Shown here: piece by piece, positions 4,814-16,641 of the stretch
How the letters are laid out: every line of letters begins with the position of its first letter
How positions within the stretch are numbered: position 1 is the stretch's first letter
Source: Poseidonia sp.
Lineage (GTDB): Archaea; Thermoplasmatota; Poseidoniia; Poseidoniales; Poseidoniaceae
DNA length: 64,000 nt
Assembly: GCA_965661285.1 (NCBI GenBank)
Contig: CBFIDD010000004.1
Coordinates: forward strand, 32,001 to 96,000
Reading direction: 5' to 3'
Made by a program: the position numbers and the translations under genes
Notes under the pieces: generated by a model
The model's input: the letters and a program-made list of their open reading frames with translations, nothing else
The model's database searches: none
What the model was told of the DNA's origin: nothing

Positions 4814-6298
4814 TCATCGGTCGTCTCGGCGGGGTTGGCGACGATTCGAGCGGTTTGAGGAGCGGCGATTGGACGCATTTGATCGGCCCTGCTGCTTTCC
4901 GCGGCGACCTCCAGGTGGTTGAGGTGGACGGCCGGATGAAGGGCGATTCGGCTGGTCGCTTCGTTGACCTCGTTGGGGCCGATTGTTCTGCTGGCGGCCT
5001 TGTCCGGAGGATCGGTTGTTGCGTTGTTGTTGCTCATTTCGCTTCTCCCCCCCTCGGTTGTAGCGACGCATGTTTCGGCCTCGACCCGTTCCTCGCTTTG
5101 AGCGCCCACCCACAGGTGAGCCCTTGACGCGCCCGGGTTTCTGTCCGGGTTTGGGCCGGGCTTTCTCAAAGTGATAGGGTTGGTCTTCCAGCACCTCAAT
5201 GTCGTGGCCCAAAAGACGCTGAATGCCGACGAGGTAGCCGGATTCTGTTTCGTCGCAGAAGGCGTAAGCAAGGCCTTCTCTCCCTGCACGGGCCGTTCGA
5301 CCGATGCGGTGAATGTAGACCTCGGGTTCGTTGGGCAAGTCGAAATTGAACACGTGGGTGATGTCCTCGACGTCAATACCACGACTGGCGATATCGGTGG
5401 CCACCAACACAAACACCTCGCCGTCCTTGAACCGCTTCAGCGCTCGCGTACGTGCCGTCTGGCTTTTGTCCCCGTGAATGGAATCCGCAGGAATGCCCAC
5501 CTTGTCCAGTTGTTTCGCAAGTCGGTTGGCGCCGTGTTTGGTGCGCGTGAACACGATGCCGCACGAGACCATTTGACCTTCCAGCAAATCGATGAGGAGC
5601 TCGCGCTTGTCCTGCTTGCGAACGAAGGAAACATACTGCTCAATGCGGTCGGTCGTCGGCGCTTCGGGGCTGATGTCAACGCTGACGGGTTGATAGAGCA
5701 TCTCGTTCGCAAGCGTTCCGATGGCTTTGGGCATCGTTGCGCTGAACATCAAGTTCTGACGGCGCTTTGGCATCAAACGAAGAATGCGTTCGACATCTTT
5801 GCTGAATCCCATGTCGAGCATGCGGTCCGCTTCGTCAAGCACGAAATGTTGGATCTCGCTCAAATCGACGTGGCCTTGGTTGTGCAGGTCAAGAAGTCGG
5901 CCGGGTGTTGCGACCAAGATGTCGACGCCGCGTCGCAGCGCCTTCACCTGCGGCGATTGCCCGACGCCGCCGAAGATGACGGTGGAGTACAACGGAAGAT
6001 GCCGTCCATAGACACGCAGGCGCTCCCCGATTTGTGCCGCTAATTCCCGAGTAGGGGTCAGCATGAGCGCACGAATGGGCCGGCCACGACCGGGTTTCTC
6101 TGCCCCGAGGTGGTGGAGGATGGGGAGCGAAAACGCCGCCGTTTTGCCCGTGCCTGTCTGGGCGATGCCCATCACGTCTCGGCCGTCCATGAGCGCCGGG
6201 ATGGTCTGCTCCTGAACGGGCGTAGGCGTTTGGTAGCCTTCGGCTTCAAGAGCCTCGAGTATGCGTTCGTCAAGGTTGAGTTCGGTGAAGGTTGTCAT
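4814..6298 (-). CDS. rhlE: DEAD-box RNA helicase (RhlE-like)
   Basis: Q motif PTPVQ, AQTGTGKT, PTRELA, DEAD, SAT, HRIGRTAR, and an R/G/Q/N-rich disordered tail. Confidence 0.93.
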   Translation of the reverse strand: MTTFTELNLDERILEALEAEGYQTPTPVQEQTIPALMDGRDVMGIAQTGTGKTAAFSLPILHHLGAEKPGRGRPIRALMLTPTRELAAQIGERLRVYGRHLPLYSTVIFGGVGQSPQVKALRRGVDILVATPGRLLDLHNQGHVDLSEIQHFVLDEADRMLDMGFSKDVERILRLMPKRRQNLMFSATMPKAIGTLANEMLYQPVSVDISPEAPTTDRIEQYVSFVRKQDKRELLIDLLEGQMVSCGIVFTRTKHGANRLAKQLDKVGIPADSIHGDKSQTARTRALKRFKDGEVFVLVATDIASRGIDVEDITHVFNFDLPNEPEVYIHRIGRTARAGREGLAYAFCDETESGYLVGIQRLLGHDIEVLEDQPYHFEKARPKPGQKPGRVKGSPVGGRSKRGTGRGRNMRRYNRGGEKRNEQQQRNNRSSGQGRQQNNRPQRGQRSDQPNRPSSGRPPQPPGGRRGKQQGRSNASNRRSSNRSNRRQPRRDDR

Positions 6299-6659
6299 GT
6301 CAATGCCTCAAGGACGAACACCCCGGGACCAATGCCTTCGGACCAACCGTTCCGGTTCGTCGTCCAACCCATTCCCTATGAAGACCGAGGGTGCCTCCCC
6401 CGTCCACGCCAGCGTTCAAGCCAATTTTGGGAGTGGCGGGCCGCGGTATTGATGAGAAGTGCGTCGTTTTCCAACCATGAAGCGCTCCTCTGGATGTGAT
6501 GAAAAGCGCGTTTGCCTACTCGGGTCGCTGGATGGCAGAACACGGTGATTCCATTGGTGAACGCTACCAAAACGACTGCCAAGAACAACAGTATACGGCG
6601 TTGCGAGAAAAAATGATGATGTAAGCAACCTTTTTGAGAGTGGGCAAATACCTCCTATC

Positions 6660-7181
6660 ATGGCAAGGTGGGCTCTCATCCTCCTCGTCCTGACGGGGGC
6701 GCTCTCCACTGCTTCAGCCCACGGAGGAGAAGACGGCCTTCAGGAAGAACAGATTTCAAACAGCCAGGTCTTGTTGATTTCGGGCATCGGCGCACTGGTA
6801 CTTTGGCAATCGACCTCTGTCTTGGTCGGTGTTCGTGCAGACGGATTCTCACCGGTGATGGTTGCTTTGGCTGGGTATTCAAGCCTCGTTCATTTAATGC
6901 TTGGTCTGCAAGACACCTTGCTCCTGGCTGGTGGGGCCGGGTTGATGATTGGGCTTGTCGCTTTGGTCATGTTGGACCTTGGTGAACAACGGCACAGGTG
7001 GATTCAGCTCGCCATGGGAGCAGGTGTGCTCGTCATGTTCATCGGCTATTTTGCTTCCAATCATGAACTCCATGCCTTCCTTGAAGACCGGTTGGGCGTG
7101 ACAACAAAAATTGCAGAACTTGCCTTGCTCACCCTCCTGTATCGATCTCTTTTCAAGGGTCAAAAGCAGGCCATTGTATGA
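6660..7181 (+). CDS. Membrane protein with signal peptide and His residues
   Basis: Signal peptide ending ASA-HGG followed by about 5 hydrophobic segments. Confidence 0.65.
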   Translation: MARWALILLVLTGALSTASAHGGEDGLQEEQISNSQVLLISGIGALVLWQSTSVLVGVRADGFSPVMVALAGYSSLVHLMLGLQDTLLLAGGAGLMIGLVALVMLDLGEQRHRWIQLAMGAGVLVMFIGYFASNHELHAFLEDRLGVTTKIAELALLTLLYRSLFKGQKQAIV

Positions 7182-7192
7182 GGTGAGGAAAA

Positions 7193-7792
7193 ATGAGGCG
7201 GGGTTTGGTTTTGCTGGTGCTTGCAACCATGCTTTACATTCCAACCTCTCAAGTTGACGCCTCCTCTCACGGCATGGAAGGTTATTCTGAGATTGGATGC
7301 AACTGCCATGGTGAGACACCGGGTGAGAACGCCATGGTCACCATCACGGGCATTCCCAGTGTCTATCGCGCAGGAGAAACATACCCTCTCACCGTGGCCC
7401 TCTCCGGCGGCCCAGAAGTTGCCGAGCAAGGTCATCAAGGTGGCTTCAACCTGAAAGCCACAGCAGGAACTCTCCACCCGGTTGACGCCTCGACCCACGT
7501 CATGGATTCTGGAGAGATCACGCACGAGCATGCCGGTGCGAATCAACGATCATGGGTGGTGCAATGGGAGGCTCCAGTGAGCGATGCTGCAGTTGAATTC
7601 ACCGTGGCAGGAAACATCGCTGATGGCGACCACCAACCAACGGACGGGGACGATTGGGCTCTGGCTTTCTATTCTTCTATCGGACAAGAATTGAGTTTCT
7701 CTGACCTCGTGAGGTCACACTTTCCCAAGCTGCTGGCTATCTCCCTTTTTGTTGTCCCCACGGCCTTCTTGTTTTGGAAGAACAAGGCGTAA
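7193..7792 (+). CDS. Secreted Reeler/choice-of-anchor-V-like protein with CxCH motif and C-terminal anchor
   Basis: Signal peptide, GCNCHG, GIPSVYRAGETYPLTV, GGFNL, ITHE, W-x-V-x-W-x-AP, then a C-terminal TM helix and basic tail. Confidence 0.7.
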   Translation: MRRGLVLLVLATMLYIPTSQVDASSHGMEGYSEIGCNCHGETPGENAMVTITGIPSVYRAGETYPLTVALSGGPEVAEQGHQGGFNLKATAGTLHPVDASTHVMDSGEITHEHAGANQRSWVVQWEAPVSDAAVEFTVAGNIADGDHQPTDGDDWALAFYSSIGQELSFSDLVRSHFPKLLAISLFVVPTAFLFWKNKA

Positions 7793-7806
7793 GAAAGACA
7801 AGTGTG

Positions 7807-8259
7807 TCAGATTGAAATCTCGTCTGGCTGAGTTTTCGTGGAAAACCGTTCAACGTTGCCGTCGCTATCAATGAGAAACTTCTCGAAATTCCAACGCACA
7901 TCACCGGCTTCACGTCCTGCGACGGCGGTCTGGCACAGACGCTCGAAGAGCGGGAGACGGTTGGGTCCGTTCACGTCGATTTTGGCCATCAGCGGAAAGG
8001 AGACGTTGTATTTGGAGGCGGTGAAGTAGCAGATCTCCTGGTGAGTTCCGGGTTCTTGTGCGCCGAATTGATTGCAAGGAAAACCGACCACGGTCAGATC
8101 GTCGTGCTTCTCGTGAAGGTCTTGAAGGCCGGCGTATTGGGGCGTAGCGCCACAGTGGCTGGCGACGTTCACCACCAACCAGCGTCTTCCCCCAAGGGCT
8201 CGCAGCGTCGTTGTTTCGCCGCCCATCGTCGTGATGGGTTCGTCAAGGAGGTGGGTCAT
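7807..8259 (-). CDS. Glutathione peroxidase family protein (Cys type)
   Basis: VNVASHCG, GFPCNQFGAQEPG, WNFEKFL. Confidence 0.95.
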   Translation of the reverse strand: MTHLLDEPITTMGGETTTLRALGGRRWLVVNVASHCGATPQYAGLQDLHEKHDDLTVVGFPCNQFGAQEPGTHQEICYFTASKYNVSFPLMAKIDVNGPNRLPLFERLCQTAVAGREAGDVRWNFEKFLIDSDGNVERFSTKTQPDEISI

Positions 8260-8346
8260 GGATGTTCCTTTCTGCTCTCAATTATGAACATGTGCCTCGC
8301 CCCACGGCAGGCAAATCCTCTTCAAGTGCCGCTCCGTGGTCGGCCC

Positions 8347-8829
8347 ATGCAAGTCCTCATGGAAACAAGCGCAGGCAACATCACCATCGAACTCTTTCAC
8401 GGAAGCGCCCCCGATACCGTGGCGAATTTCGTCAAACTGGTGGAAATGGGTCATTACGACGGTTTGCATTTTCACCGCGTGATTGAAGATTTCATGATCC
8501 AAGGCGGCTGCCCCCACTCCAAAGATCCGATGTCCCGAAGAGCCGGTACCGGAGGCCCTGGCTGGCAAATCCCCTGCGAGCCTTCTGCTCTTGCCCTCAA
8601 GCACGACAAGCCCGGTGTGCTCTCCATGGCCAACGCTGGTCGAAACACCGGTGGCTCCCAATTCTTCCTCACCACGGTTCCCACGCCGTGGCTCAACGGC
8701 AACCACGCCGTGTTCGGTGCCGTCAGTGAAGGCATGGACGTCGTTCACACCATTGAGCGATGCCGAAAGCTCCCCGGCGACCGCCCCGCTGAGCCCCAAC
8801 AAATCATCCGCTGCACCGTCCTTGAGTGA
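8347..8829 (+). CDS. Cyclophilin-type peptidyl-prolyl cis-trans isomerase
   Basis: FHRVIEDFMIQGG, LSMANAGRNTGGSQFF, WLNGNHAVFG. Start placed at ATG 8347. Confidence 0.95.
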   Translation: MQVLMETSAGNITIELFHGSAPDTVANFVKLVEMGHYDGLHFHRVIEDFMIQGGCPHSKDPMSRRAGTGGPGWQIPCEPSALALKHDKPGVLSMANAGRNTGGSQFFLTTVPTPWLNGNHAVFGAVSEGMDVVHTIERCRKLPGDRPAEPQQIIRCTVLE

Positions 8830-8838
8830 GGTGAGCAC

Positions 8839-9789
8839 ATGGTCGTCCTCGCCGTGCACGGAGGTGCAGGTGGCGACGGCCCGTGGCGCGGCATGACCGA
8901 CGCTGACCCGCAACGCATGGCCTGCATGGAAGCACTGCTGAACGACCTCGGCGAACGCCTAAACACAGGAGAACTCGACGCACTTGAAGCGGTCACCCGG
9001 GCGGTGGAAGCGATGGAAAACGAACCGTTGTTCAACGCAGGATGCGGAGCAGTTCTGGATGAATGCGGCAAGGTGGGCATGGATGCAAGCATCATGCGAG
9101 GCGAAGACCAAGCAGCAGGCTCGGTCATCGGTTTGACGTCCACGCGACACCCCGTACGCGCAGCCCACCATCTCTTGAAGCAAGGCTGGCCCGTGATGTT
9201 AGCAGGTCAGCCGGGTGATGATTTTGCGAAGGCCTGCGGCGTTGAACAAATGGCGTCGACTTGGTTTGAAACCGATTTGCGACGAGCTCAATGGCAGAAA
9301 TGGAAAGCGCAGCGGCTTCGGCCTGGTGCCACCGATGAGGAGGACGCGCTGCTCGACCACGACGGCGACGAAGATGGATGGGGAACGGTTGGTGCGGTGG
9401 CCTTGGATGTGCACGGCCATGTCGCTGCAGCCACGTCCACCGGAGGCATGACGGGAAAACCGCTCGGCCGGGTGGGCGATACGCCCATCATCGGGGCTGG
9501 GACATGGGCGGACCCAAACATCGCCGTTTCGTGCACCGGCGTGGGAGAGGCGTTCATTCGCACCGTGGCGGCGCACGCCGTCGCTGTTCACCACCGCGCC
9601 GTCGGGTTGGAGGAAGCGGCGTTGAAGGTGCTTGAGGAGGTTGAGCCGCTCGGTGGGCGAGGTGGCCTCATCGCCGTGAATACGAACGGGGATGTCGTGA
9701 TGCCGTTTCAGACCATGCTGATGTACCGGGGCGTGTACAAGAATGGCGGAATTCACGTGGGCATTGGACCGGACATTCTTCAATCATAA
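8839..9789 (+). CDS. Isoaspartyl peptidase / L-asparaginase type 2 (Ntn hydrolase)
   Basis: AVHGGAG, FNAGCG, MDASIM, GTVGAVALD, AATSTGG, GRVGDTP. RBS GAGGTGA lies upstream. Confidence 0.93.
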   Translation: MVVLAVHGGAGGDGPWRGMTDADPQRMACMEALLNDLGERLNTGELDALEAVTRAVEAMENEPLFNAGCGAVLDECGKVGMDASIMRGEDQAAGSVIGLTSTRHPVRAAHHLLKQGWPVMLAGQPGDDFAKACGVEQMASTWFETDLRRAQWQKWKAQRLRPGATDEEDALLDHDGDEDGWGTVGAVALDVHGHVAAATSTGGMTGKPLGRVGDTPIIGAGTWADPNIAVSCTGVGEAFIRTVAAHAVAVHHRAVGLEEAALKVLEEVEPLGGRGGLIAVNTNGDVVMPFQTMLMYRGVYKNGGIHVGIGPDILQS

Positions 9790-9830: not shown

Positions 9831-11006
9831 ATGCCTGTCGATGCGGAAGAAGCGTTGCGTCGAGCAACCCTCGTCCGCAGCGACCCTTCTCTGCGAGGTG
9901 TCTCGCGATGCAACATCGCAACCGAGGAAGGCGAGGTGCTTTGGGAATACATCGCCCCCGACGGTGAGCCCATCGAAGAGGAAGACCGGGTTCAACGATG
10001 GAACAGTATGGGCCTGCCCCCTGCGTGGGAAGACGTCTGGATTTGCCCCAACCCGCGCGGGCACATCCAGGCCACGGGTCGGGATGTCAAAGGTCGGCTT
10101 CAGTACCGCTATCACCCGGATTGGACGGAGATCACCACGGAAATGAAGTACGATGACGTGGCTTACTTTGCTGCGCAACTTCCTCGGCTTCGCCGTCAGG
10201 TGATTCGCGACATCGATGAGGGCGATATGTCCCTCAACACCGTGGCGGCGCTTGTGGTCCGACTGATGGATTTGTACAACATCCGGGTGGGTTCCGATGA
10301 ATACGCCCGTGCCAACGAATCCTACGGGCTGACAACGCTCAAATCGATGCATGTCAAACACATCAAGGGAGAAGACGCCGAAGGGCGGCACGACGTGGTG
10401 TTTTCGTTTACCGGAAAGTCCGGCAAAGATTGGGACATCACCATCGAGGACGACCATCTCGTTGACCTGATTTTGAAAACCAATCGCCTGGGGGCCAAGG
10501 ACGCTGATTTGTTCATGTACATCTCCGAGGCCGGCAACGAAGTCGACCTCAAAGCCGAGCACATCAATCAGTACATTCGAGATTCAAGCGGCATGGGGTT
10601 CACCGCCAAGAACTTCAGAACCTGGGCCGCTACCTCACGTTGTGCCGAACGGTTGGCCTTCCTTTCCGTTCCCCGAACCGAAGCAGAGATGAAGCGTTGG
10701 AAGCGACGAACACCCAAGGTGGACGCTCTTGAGAAAATCTGGACGGAAGGCGAATGGGCCCCGCCGGAGACCGATACCGCCCGAAACAAAGTGATGTTGG
10801 CCGTCATCGACACCGTCGCATCCGATTTGGGTAATACCCGAACAGTATGCCGTTCTTCCTACATCCACCCTTGGTTTTTGGATGCATGGAGCGAGGGAAG
10901 ACTGGCCGAGGCTTGGGCGGAATTCGCCGAGATGCGCTCCATGGGGAACATGACACCGGGTGAAAGCACGACGTTGCGCATTTTGAAATCCATCGTCAAA
11001 GGATGA
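9831..11006 (+). CDS. DNA topoisomerase IB, short bacterial/poxvirus type
   Basis: [18 protein letters not shown][10 protein letters not shown], [22 protein letters not shown], catalytic Tyr in CRSSYIHP. Confidence 0.93.
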
Positions 11007-11019
11007 GGTATCTGTCATC

Positions 11020-11043
11020 TCGGCTATATTTATTAAATGCCGA
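11020..11043 (+). promoter_or_regulatory. TATA-like promoter of RHH-fumC, flanked by TCGGC/GCCGA inverted repeat
   Basis: TATATTTATTAAAT (11025-11038) lies about 25-30 nt upstream of ATG 11059, consistent with a leaderless transcript. It has 5-bp inverted arms. Confidence 0.5.
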
Positions 11044-11058: not shown

Positions 11059-12660
11059 ATGGCTAAACATCGCGCCGGCGACCGACGAATCATCAGCATC
11101 AGTATCCCCGAACCTCTCGCAAAAAAACTCGACCGAAAGGTCGGCAAAGGGCGTAAAAACGGCCGCTCTGCGACCATCGCGAAATTGATTGAACAGGGAT
11201 TGAATCAACCTGCTTCTGTTCCGGTTCCAATGACTGCGAGTGAGACCGCCCCCCAAGCGCCCAAAGGCGAGGTGCGCATTGAATCCGATACGATGGGCGA
11301 ACTGGAAGTGCCCGGCGACCGTTATTTTGGGTGCCAGACCGCACGCTCCCTGCTGAACTTTGACATCGGCCACGACACGATGCCCCCCGGCGTCATCCGC
11401 GCCTTTGGTGTTCTCAAGCAAGCAGCGGCCAAAACCAATGTTGCGCTCAAACAACTGGACCCGGAAGTGGGCGACTTGATCATCGCCGCTTCCCAAGAGG
11501 TTCTCGAAGGCCGACTCAACGAACACTTCCCCCTTCGCGTTTGGCAAACAGGAAGCGGGACGCAATCCAACATGAACAGCAACGAGGTCATCGCCAATCG
11601 GGCGATTGAACTGGCCGGCGGCGTCCTCGGTTCGAAAACGCCTGTCCACCCCAACGACCACGTCAACCGGGCCCAATCCTCCAACGACACCTTTCCCACC
11701 GCCATGCACATCGCAGCGGCTGAAGCGTTCACGCACCGGCTGCTCCCGAGCGTCCGAGCGTTGCGCGAGGCCCTTCACGCAAAGGCCGAGGAATGGACCA
11801 GCATCGTCAAAATTGGACGAACGCACCTGATGGACGCCGTTCCGCTGACGCTGGGTCAGGAAGCATCCGGATGGGTGGCTCAACTCGACGCCGACCTCCG
11901 CCGCCTGGACTTCGCACTCGACGACTTGTTTGAACTCGCTCTTGGCGGCACCGCGGTGGGCACCGGCCTCAACGCCCACCCGCTCTTCGCACAGATGGTC
12001 GCCGATGAAATCGCCAACATCACCGGCCTGACCTTCTGTTCTGCTGAAAACAAGTTTGCACAACTGGCCGCTCACGACGCCATCGTCGCTGCCTCGGGAG
12101 CGCTGAACACGCTGGCGGCTTCACTGATGAAAATCGCCAACGACATTCGCTGGCTTGGTTCGGGCCCTCGCTGCGGATTGGGCGAACTCGCCCTGCCGGC
12201 CAACGAGCCTGGTTCCTCCATCATGCCCGGTAAAGTCAACCCGACCCAGTCTGAAGCCATGACCATGGTGTGCTGTCAGGTGATGGGTAACCACACCGCC
12301 ATCACCATTGGCGGCAGTCAAGGCAACTTCGAGCTGAACGTGTTCAAACCGATGATGATTCACAATTTCCTTCATTCCGTTGACCTGCTCACCGACGCCT
12401 GTCGCACCTTCAGAACGCGCTGCGTCGAAGGCCTGGTCGCCGTTGAAGACAACATCCAGTCGCATCTCGAGAACTCGCTGATGCTGGTCACGGCACTCAA
12501 CAATCACATCGGGTACGATAAGGCGGCGAAGATCGCCAAGAACGCGCACGAAAAAGGCACCACATTGCGAGCCTCGGCGTTGGAACTCGGCTACCTGACC
12601 AACGAGGAATTCGATGCTTGGGTTCGCCCAGAAGACATGACCGGGCCAAACCAAAGTTGA
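11059..12660 (+). CDS. fumC: Class II fumarate hydratase with N-terminal ribbon-helix-helix domain
   Basis: [54 protein letters not shown]. Residues ~8-48 have an RHH pattern. Confidence 0.93.
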
Positions 12661-12662
12661 CC

Positions 12663-13736
12663 TCAAGAGCGCCGAAGCGCGCGAAGTTTAGCCTGAAGAG
12701 CCGATGTTCGCTCATCGGCTTCCTCAGAGGGTCCAGCCGAGGTCAAGCGGCGATGGAACATTTCGCGGTCCCACACCACCACGCTCCCGTCCTCACAGCC
12801 AAGCACCATGCGTTCGTTCGTGCCGTGCATCGCGTGAACTTTGGCAAACGAACCAGATGCGAGTTTTCCACCTTTATTGGTCGCCCAGACATTCACGGTG
12901 CTGGTCATACCGTCATCGCGGGCCAACCAAAGAAGGGAGGCCCCGTCGTGGACCATGGCTTCGGTTTGAGTTGAAACAGGTGCACCCTTGGAGGACCAGC
13001 ATCGCTCTCCGTTTTCGGTGCGACCAACCGCCAACCCGTCATCCGTGGTCGCCACGTAGCCTTTGACCATGCACGTCAAATGTTCAACAGCCCCCTCTTC
13101 GGTGGAAAGCACCGCACCGAGATGGTTGGCGACCGTTCCGTCGGTTTGCCCAAACAGGCCTTGTGTCCTCCCAGAAGTCCCGCAGGTGGTGGGGGAAGAA
13201 GTGGGGGGTTTTGTGTGTTCAAACGGTGGTTCGGAGGAAACGTCCAGATGACCGCAACGAGGGCGTCCAAGTCCGGCGAGGAGTTGCTTGTCTGCGACGA
13301 TGAGGGTCCACGGGCGTTCGTCCATCCGTTCGACCCAATGAAGTTCGCCCGCTGAAGAAAATCGCCATATGGCGGACTCGATGAAATCGTTGTGCTCAAT
13401 ATCGTAAACGGAAGAAACGGCCACGAGGTCGCCTTGCCACCACTGCACCTCATCGGCACTCCCTTCAAGCGCTGCAGACCACGCCACTTCGCCCGATGAC
13501 CTCGAGAGCACCACGATGTGCAATCCACTGGCAACCGCCACCATGGTCTCGCTGAGGGCGATGGCGCTGATGCGGTCGTTGGTGGGTGTGGTCCAGAGAT
13601 GATTCCCTTCGCCATCCCAATGGGTCAGTTGTCCGTCCCAACCGCCGGCGAAGACGCCGTGTTGGGGCGTGAGGTGCACCATAGAAACAGGCTGGTCCAA
13701 CGTGCGGACCATCCACGTCGCCGTCTTCAGGTCCAT
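12663..13736 (-). CDS. Beta-propeller (PQQ/WD40-like) protein
   Basis: Repeated G-x-x-x-W motifs (GNHLW, GEVAW, GELHW, GERCW) and LGCEDGSVVVWD. Start placed at MDLKT. Confidence 0.65.
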   Translation of the reverse strand: MDLKTATWMVRTLDQPVSMVHLTPQHGVFAGGWDGQLTHWDGEGNHLWTTPTNDRISAIALSETMVAVASGLHIVVLSRSSGEVAWSAALEGSADEVQWWQGDLVAVSSVYDIEHNDFIESAIWRFSSAGELHWVERMDERPWTLIVADKQLLAGLGRPRCGHLDVSSEPPFEHTKPPTSSPTTCGTSGRTQGLFGQTDGTVANHLGAVLSTEEGAVEHLTCMVKGYVATTDDGLAVGRTENGERCWSSKGAPVSTQTEAMVHDGASLLWLARDDGMTSTVNVWATNKGGKLASGSFAKVHAMHGTNERMVLGCEDGSVVVWDREMFHRRLTSAGPSEEADERTSALQAKLRALRRS

Positions 13737-13850
13737 GGTGGGAGGACACGTCTCACCACCATAAGGAGGACGCTTGACTGTGAGGATGGGGGTCGGGTTT
13801 TGGTGAACAAGCGAGCAAGAACAAAATGCTACCTTTGGGGCCTTTGATGT

Positions 13851-14354
13851 ATGGCTGATGCACCTGCCTTGATTCGCGAACTCCAATCCTCCAACGCCAA
13901 GTACGCTGCTTCGTTTGAGGCCGAAGGGGTGCCTGGGAAGGCGGGTCAACGCTTGTTGTTGCTGACATGCATGGATTCGCGGATTGTACCCCATGCTGTG
14001 TTCGGACTCAAAGAGGGCGACATGAAGGTCATTCGAAACGCTGGCGGCCAACTCAACCCCGAAGTGACCAAAGACATCGTGCTCGCAAGTTACCTGCTGG
14101 ACTGCGAATGCATTGTGATCATGCCCCATACCCGGTGCGCCATGGCCAGCCTGTCCGTTGCCGACGTGCAAGCCACGCTTGGCGAATTGAGCGGCAAGGA
14201 TTTCTCTTCGTTTGAACCGAGCATGATCGAGAACGCCGACCAAAAATTAGCTCACGATGTGGCCACGCTCCAAGCCAACGCAATGTTGAAGACGGGCGTG
14301 ACGGTTCACGGAGCCGTGTACGACGTCGATACGGGCACCGTTCGCTGGGTGTGA
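13851..14354 (+). CDS. Beta-class carbonic anhydrase
   Basis: LTCMDSR, IRNAGG, H-x-x-C (HTRC), GAVYDVDTG. Confidence 0.92.
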   Translation: MADAPALIRELQSSNAKYAASFEAEGVPGKAGQRLLLLTCMDSRIVPHAVFGLKEGDMKVIRNAGGQLNPEVTKDIVLASYLLDCECIVIMPHTRCAMASLSVADVQATLGELSGKDFSSFEPSMIENADQKLAHDVATLQANAMLKTGVTVHGAVYDVDTGTVRWV

Positions 14355-14358
14355 AGGG

Positions 14359-15240
14359 TCACACCAGCGGTATTCGCCGGCGAGGAATGGCGAAGGTGAG
14401 AATGAAGGCGAGGAGCCCGAAAATACAGGCCGTGTAGTAGTGACCCATGGTGAAAAACGCGAGCACCGAGGATGTTCGAAGCAACACCACCGAACCGGAT
14501 TTGAGCGCCCACAGCGCAAAACCGGCGGCGATGAGCGCCACGCCCATGAAGCCGAAACCAACCAAAACGTACCCTGTTGCGGCACTCGGGTCCATCAAAG
14601 GGTGGTCCATTTGTGACGGGGTCCTGTCGATGGTACGGATTTCGCACTCGGGAGCGTCCCCTTCACACGGTTGGTCAGCAAACATCGCAGACGAAGGGAA
14701 GTCGAAGTCGATGGTGGTGAAACCAATCGGTTCGATCAAGGCCGGCGGAGAGAGCAGGACGCGATTGGAAAACACGTCTCGGTGCCCGTCTCTTGCCACG
14801 ATGATGTCGACGCGAATCAGGCCGGGGTCCAGGGATTCGAACGAAAACCGACCGGTGTCGTCCGTTTCATTTTCTTCAGAAACCCACTGCGACGAGGCTT
14901 CGTCAAGCCAGGAAAGGTACACGGTCGCGTTCTCGATGGGTTGTCCATTGTCGTCAACCACCGTTCCCCGGAAGGTTGCGGTATCGTCGGGCGCCGTGAG
15001 CGCCAGCCTGTAGACAAACTCGTCAGGGCGGACCAAACCGTCGTTGGGCGAAGCGTAATCCAAGCCGTTGAGAAACCCCATCATGCACGTGAAAAGCAGG
15101 AAAAGGGCCGTTGCTTTGCCCATCGGATGCAGTTTTGGGTCCTCGATGGTGAGGACGGTGTCGGAGGATGCGAAGAGCATCGGCGTTTCCTCAACCACCT
15201 CATCGAGGTAGGTCGGGTCGTCCTCCTCGACATCCGCCAT
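14359..15240 (-). CDS. Membrane protein with carboxypeptidase-regulatory-like (prealbumin-fold) domain
   Basis: TM helix, then GTVVDDNGQPIENATV...TDDTGRFSFESLDPG, then C-terminal TM helices. Confidence 0.7.
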   Translation of the reverse strand: MADVEEDDPTYLDEVVEETPMLFASSDTVLTIEDPKLHPMGKATALFLLFTCMMGFLNGLDYASPNDGLVRPDEFVYRLALTAPDDTATFRGTVVDDNGQPIENATVYLSWLDEASSQWVSEENETDDTGRFSFESLDPGLIRVDIIVARDGHRDVFSNRVLLSPPALIEPIGFTTIDFDFPSSAMFADQPCEGDAPECEIRTIDRTPSQMDHPLMDPSAATGYVLVGFGFMGVALIAAGFALWALKSGSVVLLRTSSVLAFFTMGHYYTACIFGLLAFILTFAIPRRRIPLV

Positions 15241-15261
15241 GGATACTCTGAAGCGTGCGCC

Positions 15262-16641
15262 CTACTTGATGTCAATGCGGCCTTTCCAACGAGCGAGCAA
15301 CTGGGCCTGCTTTGCGGGCGCCATCCACACCTTCATCGACATAGGACCGCCTTCAGAGCGCTGGTCATCTTCCACCATGCCGTTGGCGTAGATCTCGGCT
15401 ACGATGCGTTCGCTTGCGTCGGGAGAACCGTTCGTTGGGGGTTGGACCTCAACGACCACGGCTTGGCCGAACAAGCGCTCCCGAATCAGATGCTGAAGGG
15501 CTTCAATGCCCTCACCTGTCATGGATGAAACGGGTGCAGGGTCGTCAAAACCGAGGTGGGAAACAAGGTCGACAACGCCCTGAAGTTGTTGGGGCGTCAC
15601 TTTGTCGATTTTGGTCAGCACCACGTGCGGCGGTCGCTGTTCTTCGAGGGGGGCGGGTTCGGTATCTTGGCGCTCGACCACCTCTCGGCGCGTGGTTTCC
15701 AATTTTCGTTTGATTTCAGGGATGGAGTCGGAGGAGTCGAGCAAAATTAGCGTCAAATCGGCATCTATCGCTTCAGCAATAGTTGATTTAAATGCCGATA
15801 GTGTGGCATTTGGTATATTGTCAATAAATCCAATCGTATCCGCCAGAAGAATGCGCGGACTTTTCTCCATCCGGCCCACGGTGGTCTCCAGCGTGGAGAA
15901 CAATTGGTCCTCCACAAGCACGGTTTTCCCTGATAGATGCTGGAAAAGGGAGGATTTTCCCGCGTTGGTGTAGCCCACAAAGCCCACGGTCATTGCGCCG
16001 CTGCGGCTGCGTTGACGTCGATGTTCACGCTGCGCATTGGCGTGTTTTTTCTGTCGGCGGCGGAGATTGGTCAATTCCCTGTTGAGATTGGCGAGCACAC
16101 CTTGCAGGGCCGTGATACCGCCACCACCGTATCCAGCCCGCTCTCCGGTCGTCTGCTGGTTGGCCAGCTCTCTGAGAACGGTTCGGTCGGATTGGAGTTG
16201 GGCGATGCGAACTTGCGTGCGCGCCTCGACCGACGAAGCGTGAGCGGTAAACAGCGCGAGAAGCAGGCGAACCCTGTCCCACACCTCCACTCCGAGTGCT
16301 TGGTTCACGCCGACCAATTGCCGCGGGGTGGCGTTGGTGTGAATGATGACAAGGTCAACACCCTCCCACGGGTGGCCCGTCATGGTGCTGTTTCGCTCGT
16401 CCGCAATGTCCTCAAGTCGGCCTTTTCCAAAGTAGGTCCTCGGGTCAGCGTGCCCGCTTTGCGCCACGGTTTCAACGATGCTGATGCCCATTGTTTCAGC
16501 CAGCGAACGCAGTTCCGTGGTGTCCTCGATGCCGCGCACAAGCAAGAGCGCCCGACGACCTTGGTGGTTGGTGCGGGCCTCGCCCAACACCACACCGCCG
16601 CTTCCGGCGACGACAAAGGGGTCTTCGGGCGGCGGGGCCAT
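15262..16641 (-). CDS. hflX: GTPase HflX
   Basis: TYFGKGR, VWDRVRLLL, VGYTNAGKSS, DQLFSTL, DTIGFI, TKID. Confidence 0.92.
   Translation of the reverse strand: MAPPPEDPFVVAGSGGVVLGEARTNHQGRRALLLVRGIEDTTELRSLAETMGISIVETVAQSGHADPRTYFGKGRLEDIADERNSTMTGHPWEGVDLVIIHTNATPRQLVGVNQALGVEVWDRVRLLLALFTAHASSVEARTQVRIAQLQSDRTVLRELANQQTTGERAGYGGGGITALQGVLANLNRELTNLRRRQKKHANAQREHRRQRSRSGAMTVGFVGYTNAGKSSLFQHLSGKTVLVEDQLFSTLETTVGRMEKSPRILLADTIGFIDNIPNATLSAFKSTIAEAIDADLTLILLDSSDSIPEIKRKLETTRREVVERQDTEPAPLEEQRPPHVVLTKIDKVTPQQLQGVVDLVSHLGFDDPAPVSSMTGEGIEALQHLIRERLFGQAVVVEVQPPTNGSPDASERIVAEIYANGMVEDDQRSEGGPMSMKVWMAPAKQAQLLARWKGRIDIK

Follow-up and report, generated by a model that had tools for sequence, protein, structure and literature searches.

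A class II fumarase fused to a ribbon-helix-helix module in marine Poseidoniales, with possible action at its own promoter

Introduction

Ribbon-helix-helix (RHH) modules act as dimers whose two-stranded sheet enters the major groove of DNA, and RHH proteins are usually sequence-specific. Two described systems lie closest to the locus reported here. The nickel-responsive repressor NikR joins an N-terminal RHH to a C-terminal tetramerising, metal-binding domain, and its two RHH dimers reach two half-sites. Enteric PutA, the textbook RHH trigger enzyme, combines an RHH with proline dehydrogenase and P5C dehydrogenase and autoregulates at its own promoter region. Few enzymes also act as transcription factors; to our knowledge, PutA is the only classic RHH-based one, and no such dual protein is known among TCA-cycle enzymes or in archaea.

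We also know of no DNA-binding domain in the fumarases that take part in the DNA-damage response, which reach DNA by relocalisation or through partners. Class II fumarase is a homotetramer in which the subunits share active sites (PMC5806193), and it is reported to join the DNA-damage response and to co-localise with bacterial DNA (PMC5711358, PMC2834712, PMC6068284).

Here we analyse an archaeal fumC gene within a 64,000-nucleotide stretch of DNA, hereafter the window, whose product is one polypeptide composed of an RHH module, a flexible linker and a class II fumarase. A preliminary description of the locus, made from the letters alone, had proposed such a fusion and knew of no described example; a search of the literature, covering titles and abstract openings, likewise gave none. 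Public records name the relatives just 'class II fumarate hydratase', and for the 120 clusters listed the Pfam annotation consists of PF00206 and PF10415 only.

Results

The gene occupies 11059..12660 on the forward strand of the window as a single uninterrupted frame of 533 codons plus stop, read from the ATG at 11059..11061 to the stop codon at 12658..12660; as listed among the open reading frames, the same frame opens earlier, at TTG 11044. The FumC core opens at R73-I-E-S-D-T-M-G80 and is preceded by 72 residues, where the preliminary description had put about 70. The sequence pieces quoted there are all present: RRIISISIP at residues 9–17, a helix stretch at 18–28, GKGRKNG at 29–35 and a second helix stretch at 36–48.

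Sequence comparison indicates that translation begins at ATG 11059, as had been proposed. The ATG and the first 10 residues are conserved in all 24 of the long forms compared (FumC sequences with the N-terminal extension, from two families), the spacing between the upstream box and the ATG is fixed, and the conserved box begins at −30, where the TATA-like hexamers of the genome peak. An internal start at ATG 11230 (Met58), named beforehand as the competing possibility, was rejected because the window's sequence alone has this Met, which is not conserved in any of the other 23 long forms. There is no TATA-like hexamer about 30 nt before Met79, and no Shine-Dalgarno-like GGAGG in the 22 nt before ATG 11059. 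Since the box-to-ATG distance of 30 nt is a spacing typical of the genome, the fumC mRNA is probably leaderless. The source stretch occurs as contigs in six runs from three studies, with no RNA run among those listed. We are almost certain that the gene product is a real fused protein.

The RHH module spans residues 1–49 (11059..11205, forward strand) and consists of a basic arm (residues 1–10), a strand (about 9–16), helix A (18–28), a G-R-S turn (35–37) and helix B (36–49). The Pfam model RHH_1 matched the 55-residue N-terminal piece, the check proposed at the outset, at 20.8 bits against a cut-off of 20.5, a marginal match; it scored 19.9 bits for a 71-residue piece and only 16.5 bits for the full-length protein, and in a genome-wide scan it rose above the cut-off only together with its neighbours in the frame. 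The same model matched 22 of 22 orthologous domains at E<=0.1, the best at 4e-5. An AF2 prediction built on 22 sequences (mean pLDDT 80.5) placed a strand at residues 9–11 and helices at 18–28 and 36–49. The same strand-helix-helix elements appear in the full-length predicted model, and with the invariant G35-R36-S37 the AF2 layout has the strand, helix, short G-x-S/T turn, helix topology of the RHH superfamily.

In a VIA-align comparison with 48,161 chains, rows 1–22 and most of the best 50 were RHH proteins, at Z scores of 4.7 or less, which is below the reliable range of the tool; matches with Z from 4.7 to 3 included AmrZ-DNA, ArtA-DNA, NikR, the PutA RHH-operator complex, Arc and omega. 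Among the named Atlas neighbours (protein-language-model clusters), the ten nearest were also RHH families. Foldseek, run with the module against the PDB, returned nothing at E<=0.001 and only two rows, at E about 10, and a profile of the 22 modules against PDB sequences returned only chance-level rows (E>=0.5). Homodimer prediction for the 55-residue module scored 0.31, against a mark of 0.42 and controls at 0.00, and was counted neither for nor against pairing. The module very probably has the RHH fold, as the preliminary description had recognised from its pattern.

Among the 22 orthologues, 23 of the 55 module positions are invariant, including H4, R5, R9 and R10 of the basic arm, I11, S13 and S15 of the strand stretch and the G35-R36-S37 turn. 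We infer that these arm, strand and turn residues form the surfaces that RHH proteins use on DNA; judged by sequence, the fusion protein probably binds DNA.

Fused in frame to this module is a bona fide class II fumarase (FumC; residues 73–533, 11275..12657, forward strand). Pfam places Lyase_1 at residues 80–410 (11296-12288, forward strand; 4.7e-109) and FumaraseC_C at residues 476–529 (12484-12645, forward strand; 6.8e-26), and TIGR00979 (fumC_II) matches residues 72–528 at 757.7 bits against a cut-off of 664.75, covering model positions 1–457 of 458; the aspA equivalog stays below its own cut-off (461 against 681.2). Within a conserved 11-residue loop at residues 385–395 (12211..12243, forward strand), 34 orthologues share 10 residues without exception, and the eleventh, V393, is nearly invariant. 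This GSSxMPxKxN loop, intact in the fusion protein, we take to be the catalytic SS loop of the fumarase/aspartase superfamily. The fumC_II match, both Pfam domains and the loop are shared with ordinary FumC, from which the fusion differs by its 72 extra N-terminal residues including the RHH. No class I fumarase was found in the 93%-complete genome, and the single FumC is the only fumarase detected.

Module and body are connected by a variable linker of 23 residues rich in Pro, Ala, Ser and Thr (residues 50–72, 11206..11274, forward strand), with pLDDT below 50 at residues 50–60 of the full-length model. Mean identity among the 24 long forms from the two families is 80% in the RHH and 27% in the linker. 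Within the genus, dN/dS is 0.096 for the 49 RHH codons, against 0.26 for the linker and 0.03 for FumC, and it is 0.083 for the RHH within the window's own subclade. As modelled, the long flexible linker offers no obvious allosteric path to the active site.

Like NikR, the fusion carries an N-terminal RHH on a tetrameric, small-ligand-binding body, and NikR chains are among its VIA-align matches (1q5v, Z 4.2; 2bj1, Z 3.9; 2ca9, Z 3.8). Unlike NikR, it has as its body a 460-residue metabolic enzyme, not an ACT-like metal sensor, and a long disordered linker lies between module and body; since the NikR equivalog TIGR02793 scores 12.9 bits, with the RHH part only, far below its cut-off of 175.45, the fusion is not a NikR. 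With PutA it has in common an N-terminal RHH joined to a catabolic enzyme, and the PutA RHH-operator structure 2rbf is another VIA-align match (Z 3.9), but the enzyme is unrelated, FumC is without a flavin or membrane switch to drive DNA release, and the gene belongs to an archaeon, has a TATA/TFB-type promoter and probably gives a leaderless mRNA. By analogy, the architecture is closer to NikR than to PutA, the parallel first suggested for it. By domain assignment, the protein has the make-up of trigger enzymes of the PutA, BirA and NadR type, with enzyme and putative DNA-binding domain in one polypeptide. The DNA-damage-response fumarases of yeast, human cells (FH) and B. subtilis are also reported to link class II fumarase to DNA (PMC5711358, PMC2834712); unlike them, the fusion has a DNA-binding-type module within the polypeptide.

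A survey of FumC N-termini found the RHH fused in 226 of 401 genomes of the class, in two families: it is present in 84/188 genomes of family f1, 141/166 of f3 and 0/43 of f4, and FumC was found in 372 of the same 401. Among the matches listed, the RHH sits in open frames of about 530–600 residues unless the frame is incomplete. Comparison of these sequences indicates that the fusion is ancestral to its two carrier families and has been kept by purifying selection. The RHH is missing from 19 of the 50 genomes of the same genus and is therefore dispensable.

A profile of the module run against 1.84 billion representatives gave 43 matches at E<=0.001, of which 27 were inspected. Eleven of these continue into the FumC N-terminus, and the remainder stop in or just past the linker or turn into adaptor-like or unrelated sequence; by their sequences P0002, P0015 and P0016 look like assembly chimeras, and P0043 (85 residues, E 2.6e-4) is a different RHH. 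With no convincing stand-alone copy among the matches inspected, we rejected separate encoding of the RHH in relatives; fragments do not prove that such a form is absent. None of five genomes with a short FumC gave a clear match to a separate copy, with a single weak one (E 0.002) in a 130-residue frame elsewhere in genome G012, and the window's own genome has no RHH paralogue, its next matches lying at E 0.22 and 0.74. The genomes with short FumC have lost the RHH rather than split it off. The preliminary description had allowed that relatives might encode the RHH separately or lack it, and only the second part applies, to some of them.

In a FumC tree of 29 rows (L018, missed by the motif filter, left out; midpoint root), the five short forms are nested within the genus clade and there are long forms outside it. 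The tree requires two or three changes. Given that its well-supported branches force only one and that it was rooted at the midpoint, independent loss of the RHH on several occasions is likely, on the sequences compared, rather than proven. L072 (genome G245), whose frame runs off the contig end, was excluded from the short-form count.

Upstream of the gene, an AT-rich box, ATATTTATTAAA (11026..11037, forward strand), would serve as TATA box and is a candidate RHH operator half-site. Its core, TTTATTAA (11029-11036, forward strand), begins exactly 30 nt before the ATG, in agreement with the TATA-like box placed about 25–30 nt upstream by the preliminary description. The 1.98-Mb genome holds TTTATTAA three times and the 12-mer ATATTTATTAAA once, and neither of the other two TTTATTAA sites has an ORF of more than 60 residues starting within 60 nt downstream. 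In this genome TT[CT]A[TA]A hexamers peak at −30/−29 before crude ORF starts, a rough figure in that each start was guessed as the first ATG, and a crude k-mer search for a motif common to promoters gave weak enrichment.

One of TTATTAA, TTAATAA and TTATTAT is found at −36..−24 in each of the 43 distinct long-form promoters. The AT-rich box occurs in none of 24 short-form promoters (5 + 19), which bear other boxes such as TTCATAGGATG or GGTATAATCC; the lineages are kin, so that these 43 and 24 promoters represent only a handful of independent events. A dyad, ATTAAT-N5-ATTAAT with at most one mismatch, is present in 13 of the 43 long-form promoters, in both families, beginning at −29 to −26 in 12 of them and at −32 in one; at up to two mismatches it is absent from 1147 crude upstream regions of this genome. 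The 17-mer TTATTAATAASTAATTA, allowing up to two mismatches, was found at fumC only in 5/5 genomes searched, and a reversed-pattern control gave one match in three of the same five, so chance matches do occur at this stringency. The window's subclade (L001-L012) retains the first half-element alone, as ATTAAA, with a G+C-rich second box site and three to five mismatches to the dyad. Half of the element is lost there with the RHH still under selection, so either one half-site suffices or the true target lies elsewhere.

Discussion

As the overall explanation, we tentatively propose that the fumarase binds DNA and represses transcription from its own promoter. The linkers of roughly 23 residues would let the four FumC N-termini pair as two RHH dimers, and the enzyme would take the part of the tetramerising body, much as in NikR. 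These dimers would bind the AT-rich element overlapping the TATA box and −10 region of the gene's own promoter, an element whose ancestral form would be two palindromic ATTAAT boxes 11 bp apart, and a promoter occupied in this way would be closed to TBP/TFB or RNA polymerase, resulting in negative autoregulation of the sole fumarase. From the sequences at hand, action of the fusion protein at its own promoter is a real possibility that stops short of being probable. It may be that the AT-rich element is simply a strong TATA box with an AT-rich melting region, and the joint loss of box and RHH could be the by-product of one deletion or replacement that took the promoter together with the 5' end of the gene.

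Our analysis favours plain autorepression over a metabolite-triggered switch, and the protein is unlikely to be metabolite-responsive. Equally doubtful is a more elaborate form of the proposal, in which the FumC tetramer would be a sequence-specific transcription factor, its two RHH dimers clamping the ATTAAT dyad and fumarate or malate occupancy tuning the clamp.

The RHH-like module might instead have a role without DNA, as a handle for oligomerisation or partner binding (for example in a metabolon) or as an RNA binder. The moderate support for the fold would allow this, as would the dispensability of the module in many lineages and its lack of a paralogue in the genome. We nonetheless think it rather unlikely, given that the first 22 VIA-align rows are RHH-type DNA-binding domains, several of them solved with DNA, that invariance extends beyond the hydrophobic core to the arm and I11, S13 and S15, and that the module and a special promoter element are found together.

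Autorepression also has to be weighed against a trigger enzyme governing a regulon, with operators at other genes such as those of the TCA cycle or dicarboxylate transport and with substrate occupancy altering binding as in PutA and NikR. The architecture matches such a protein, and the putative DNA-contact residues of the arm and strand stretch are invariant in two families, which would speak for a conserved target; the subclade that kept its RHH under selection after losing half of the promoter element likewise makes a target elsewhere plausible. Against this, the 17-mer element occurs at no other place in the five genomes searched, TTTATTAA is found at just two other places, neither with such an ORF nearby, and no ligand-coupling path is evident across the disordered linker. 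We regard a regulon regulator as quite unlikely.

An improbable alternative is a DNA or nucleoid tether, in which the RHH would anchor fumarase with little sequence specificity and fumarate or malate would be made on the spot. The part in the DNA-damage response that is reported for fumarase in yeast, human cells and Bacillus subtilis would then be hard-wired, and the strongly basic N-terminal arm would suit such a tether. A topoisomerase IB gene precedes fumC in this genus, but the adjacency is confined to the genus and persists beside two short forms, and we rejected this enzyme as a functional partner. The usual sequence specificity of RHH proteins is a further point against tethering, which would also leave the tight link between RHH and promoter element unexplained. 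Finally, an annotation artefact, with the upstream 72 codons untranslated and the enzyme beginning near residue 73, is scarcely credible: an open frame ahead of the usual FumC start can arise by chance and relatives with short forms exist, but dN/dS is 0.10 across the 49 N-terminal codons, two families conserve the ATG together with the 10 residues at the N-terminus, a promoter box stands at −30 of ATG 11059, no TATA-like hexamer precedes Met79 at about that distance and Met58 is not conserved.

The fusion is widespread: most of the order has it, with 226 of the 401 sampled genomes of the class, and it spans two families of the abundant marine order Poseidoniales (a name taken from the records of close relatives). 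It suggests that an enzyme of the citric acid cycle also sits on DNA, where it would most likely control its own gene, and so offers a testable hypothesis on how the amount of a central metabolic enzyme is set in uncultured marine archaea. The fusion is also an independent evolutionary hint tying class II fumarase to DNA, a link that has so far come from DNA-damage studies in eukaryotes and Bacillus. If the tetramer does clamp the dyad under the control of fumarate or malate, it would be the first enzyme-repressor in the central carbon metabolism of archaea, here the dominant planktonic ones of the surface ocean, and a natural 'Rosetta stone' for the long-puzzling connection between class II fumarase and DNA.

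Results

The fused gene occupies 11059..12660 on the forward strand as one uninterrupted 533-codon open frame. The preliminary description was correct in both its account and its coordinates. In the full-length protein, residues 80-410 match Pfam Lyase_1 (E 4.7e-109) and residues 476-529 match FumaraseC_C; the NCBIfam fumC_II equivalog TIGR00979 covers residues 72-528 with 757.7 bits (cut-off 664.75), and the aspartase equivalog stays below its own cut-off. The translation keeps the 11-residue FumC loop intact and has 72 residues ahead of the enzyme, namely a 48-residue stretch followed by one rich in Pro, Ala, Ser and Thr.

Taken together, the fold evidence makes it very probable that this N-terminal module is a ribbon-helix-helix (RHH), the type assigned to it from the sequence earlier. 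Scanned alone, the 55-aa N-terminal piece just cleared the Pfam RHH_1 cut-off of 20.5 with 20.8 bits, the score dropping with longer context (19.9 bits for a 71-aa piece, 16.5 bits for the full-length protein), and all 22 orthologous domains matched RHH_1 at E<=0.1, the best at 4e-5. AlphaFold2, given a 22-sequence alignment, predicts a short strand and helices at 18-28 and 36-49 (mean pLDDT 80.5). When the 55-residue model was compared exhaustively with 48,161 PDB representatives, solved RHH proteins made up the top 22 matches and most of the best 50, at Z scores (4.7-3) under the tool's reliable range; these RHH proteins include the Rv0298 antitoxin, AmrZ-DNA, TacA, ArtA-DNA, NikR, the PutA RHH-operator complex, Arc and omega. 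Neither Foldseek with the module model nor a search of PDB sequences by profile returned a match. As a lead only, all ten of the closest named neighbours in the Atlas, judged by language-model features, are RHH families. The sole other RHH_1 match in the window's genome (G000:C2:355064-355174, forward strand, 28.6 bits, in a 182-aa open frame) is unrelated to the FumC module by sequence, and the genome-wide search with profile A1 misses it.

Purifying selection can be compared along the protein: within the genus, dN/dS is lowest in the enzyme (0.03), intermediate over codons 1-49 (0.096) and highest in the linker (0.26), and the window's own subclade gives 0.025, 0.083 and 0.29 in that order. 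Invariant RHH positions (H4, R5, A6, G7, R9, R10, I11, S13, S15, P17, E18, A21, L24, D25, V28, G29, G31 and G35-R36-S37-A38-T39) extend beyond the core to the basic arm, the strand stretch and the turn that precedes helix B, and we infer that those of the arm, strand and turn face DNA; one rival reading is a role without DNA involvement.

The proposed start at ATG 11059 is borne out. Both this ATG and the N-terminal ten residues are kept in all 24 RHH-bearing (long-form) proteins compared, and the internal Met58 (ATG 11230) is absent from every other one. The AT-rich box ATATTTATTAAA (11026-11037, forward strand) begins 30 nt upstream, a spacing constant to within a few bases across the 43 distinct long-form promoters collected. 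The genome is 57% G+C, and its TATA-like hexamers TT[CT]A[TA]A, counted ahead of crudely called frames (long ORFs, first ATG taken as start), peak exactly at -30/-29, which fits leaderless mRNAs and a start at 11059. The same peak suggests that leaderless mRNAs are common in this genome, where AT-only 8-mers of classical type are very rare (5 copies of TTTATATA and 3 of TTTATTAA in 1.98 Mb).

TTTATTAA occurs 3 times in the 1.98 Mb genome and the 12-mer once. TTATTAA, TTAATAA or TTATTAT lies at -36..-24 in 43/43 long-form promoters. Many lineages, from both families, have a longer AT-rich tract that reaches about -10 and takes the form of two palindromic ATTAAT boxes spaced 11 bp apart, present with <=1 mismatch in 13 and <=2 in 17 of the 43, and at <=2 mismatches in none of 1147 crude upstream regions of the window's genome; the window's own subclade has the first half (ATTAAA) only. 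None of 24 promoters of short forms, which lack the RHH, carries the AT-rich element; they have other boxes at the equivalent position, TTCATAGGATG and GGTATAATCC among them. One alternative to autoregulation would be a wider regulon combined with metabolite sensing; the 17-mer TTATTAATAASTAATTA (<=2 mismatches) was found solely at fumC in each of five genomes searched.

The survey of relatives' FumC N-termini showed the fusion in most, but not all, genomes of the class. Among 401 genomes of the class, 372 have FumC and 226 the RHH (84/188 in family f1, 141/166 in f3, 0/1 in f2, 0/43 in f4, 0/2 in f5), and it is missing in 19/50 same-genus genomes. An f2 genome outside this sample, G027, gave a full-length match to residues 1-529. 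Listed RHH matches lie in open frames some 530-600 aa long unless a contig end intervenes, except for a 47-aa frame, the second match in genome G046, on a separate contig (C16:14517-14654). Searching 1.84 billion representative proteins by profile gave just 43 matches at E<=0.001; of 27 examined, 11 run on into FumC and the rest are truncated or chimeric-looking. Three of the matched proteins (P0002, P0015, P0016) have RHH and linker followed by unrelated sequence and are probably assembly chimeras. The extension also turned up in 122 clusters of 293-933 aa in a word-based search. Among the 120 listed, those named are fumarate hydratase class II, with one partial lyase family protein; source organisms named include Candidatus Thalassarchaeum, Candidatus Poseidonia and Poseidoniales, and precomputed Pfam lists hold PF00206 and PF10415 only.

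In some relatives the short form begins a few residues ahead of RIESDTMG, and no separate copy of the module was found in five short-form genomes searched. In the FumC tree the genus clade contains all five short forms examined, and long forms outside it serve as the outgroup; 2-3 long/short changes are needed, of which well-supported branches force only one. Two short forms retain topoisomerase IB upstream and the beta-propeller gene downstream, which indicates loss of the RHH in place. The same-genus genome G010 carries long and short fumC on different contigs (C9:5909-7501 and C13:296-1681), which may reflect a mixed bin or a real duplication.

The topoisomerase IB gene (9831-11006, forward strand, 391 aa; Pfam Topoisom_I 1.6e-27, Top1B_N_bact 3.3e-22), of eukaryotic/bacterial type and here in an archaeon, ends 52 nt upstream of fumC; it is upstream in 15/17 same-genus long-form, 2/5 short-form and 0/7 f3 loci. 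The beta-propeller-like gene (12663-13787, reverse strand, weak Pfam match) converges on fumC and adjoins it in 24/29 loci, including 5/7 of f3. Remaining neighbours (4814-9789 and 13851-16641) have no obvious functional link to fumC: a DEAD-box helicase, two ORFs without Pfam match, glutathione peroxidase, isoaspartyl peptidase/asparaginase, beta-carbonic anhydrase, a CarboxypepD_reg-domain protein and an HflX-type GTPase.

Discussion

FumC is a homotetramer and RHH modules work as dimers. Linker residues 50-60 are disordered in the full-length model (pLDDT <50), and a 23-residue disordered linker should let each tetramer present two RHH dimers in a NikR-like layout. NikR, and PutA as an enzyme with a fused RHH, are analogous to RHH-FumC, but it is a member of neither. 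A full-text literature search found no RHH-fumarase fusion or discussion of one for this order, in line with the preliminary description. A nucleoid tether would be another possible function, related to the part that class II fumarase is reported to play in the DNA-damage response (PMC5711358, PMC2834712, PMC6068284).

No class I fumarase was found in the window's genome (93% complete), which has a single FumC, so the fusion protein must serve the TCA cycle. Because the promoter element that goes with the RHH lies over the TATA box and the stretch from there to the start site, the simplest interpretation is negative autoregulation, in which RHH-FumC would occlude the promoter of its own gene, fumC.
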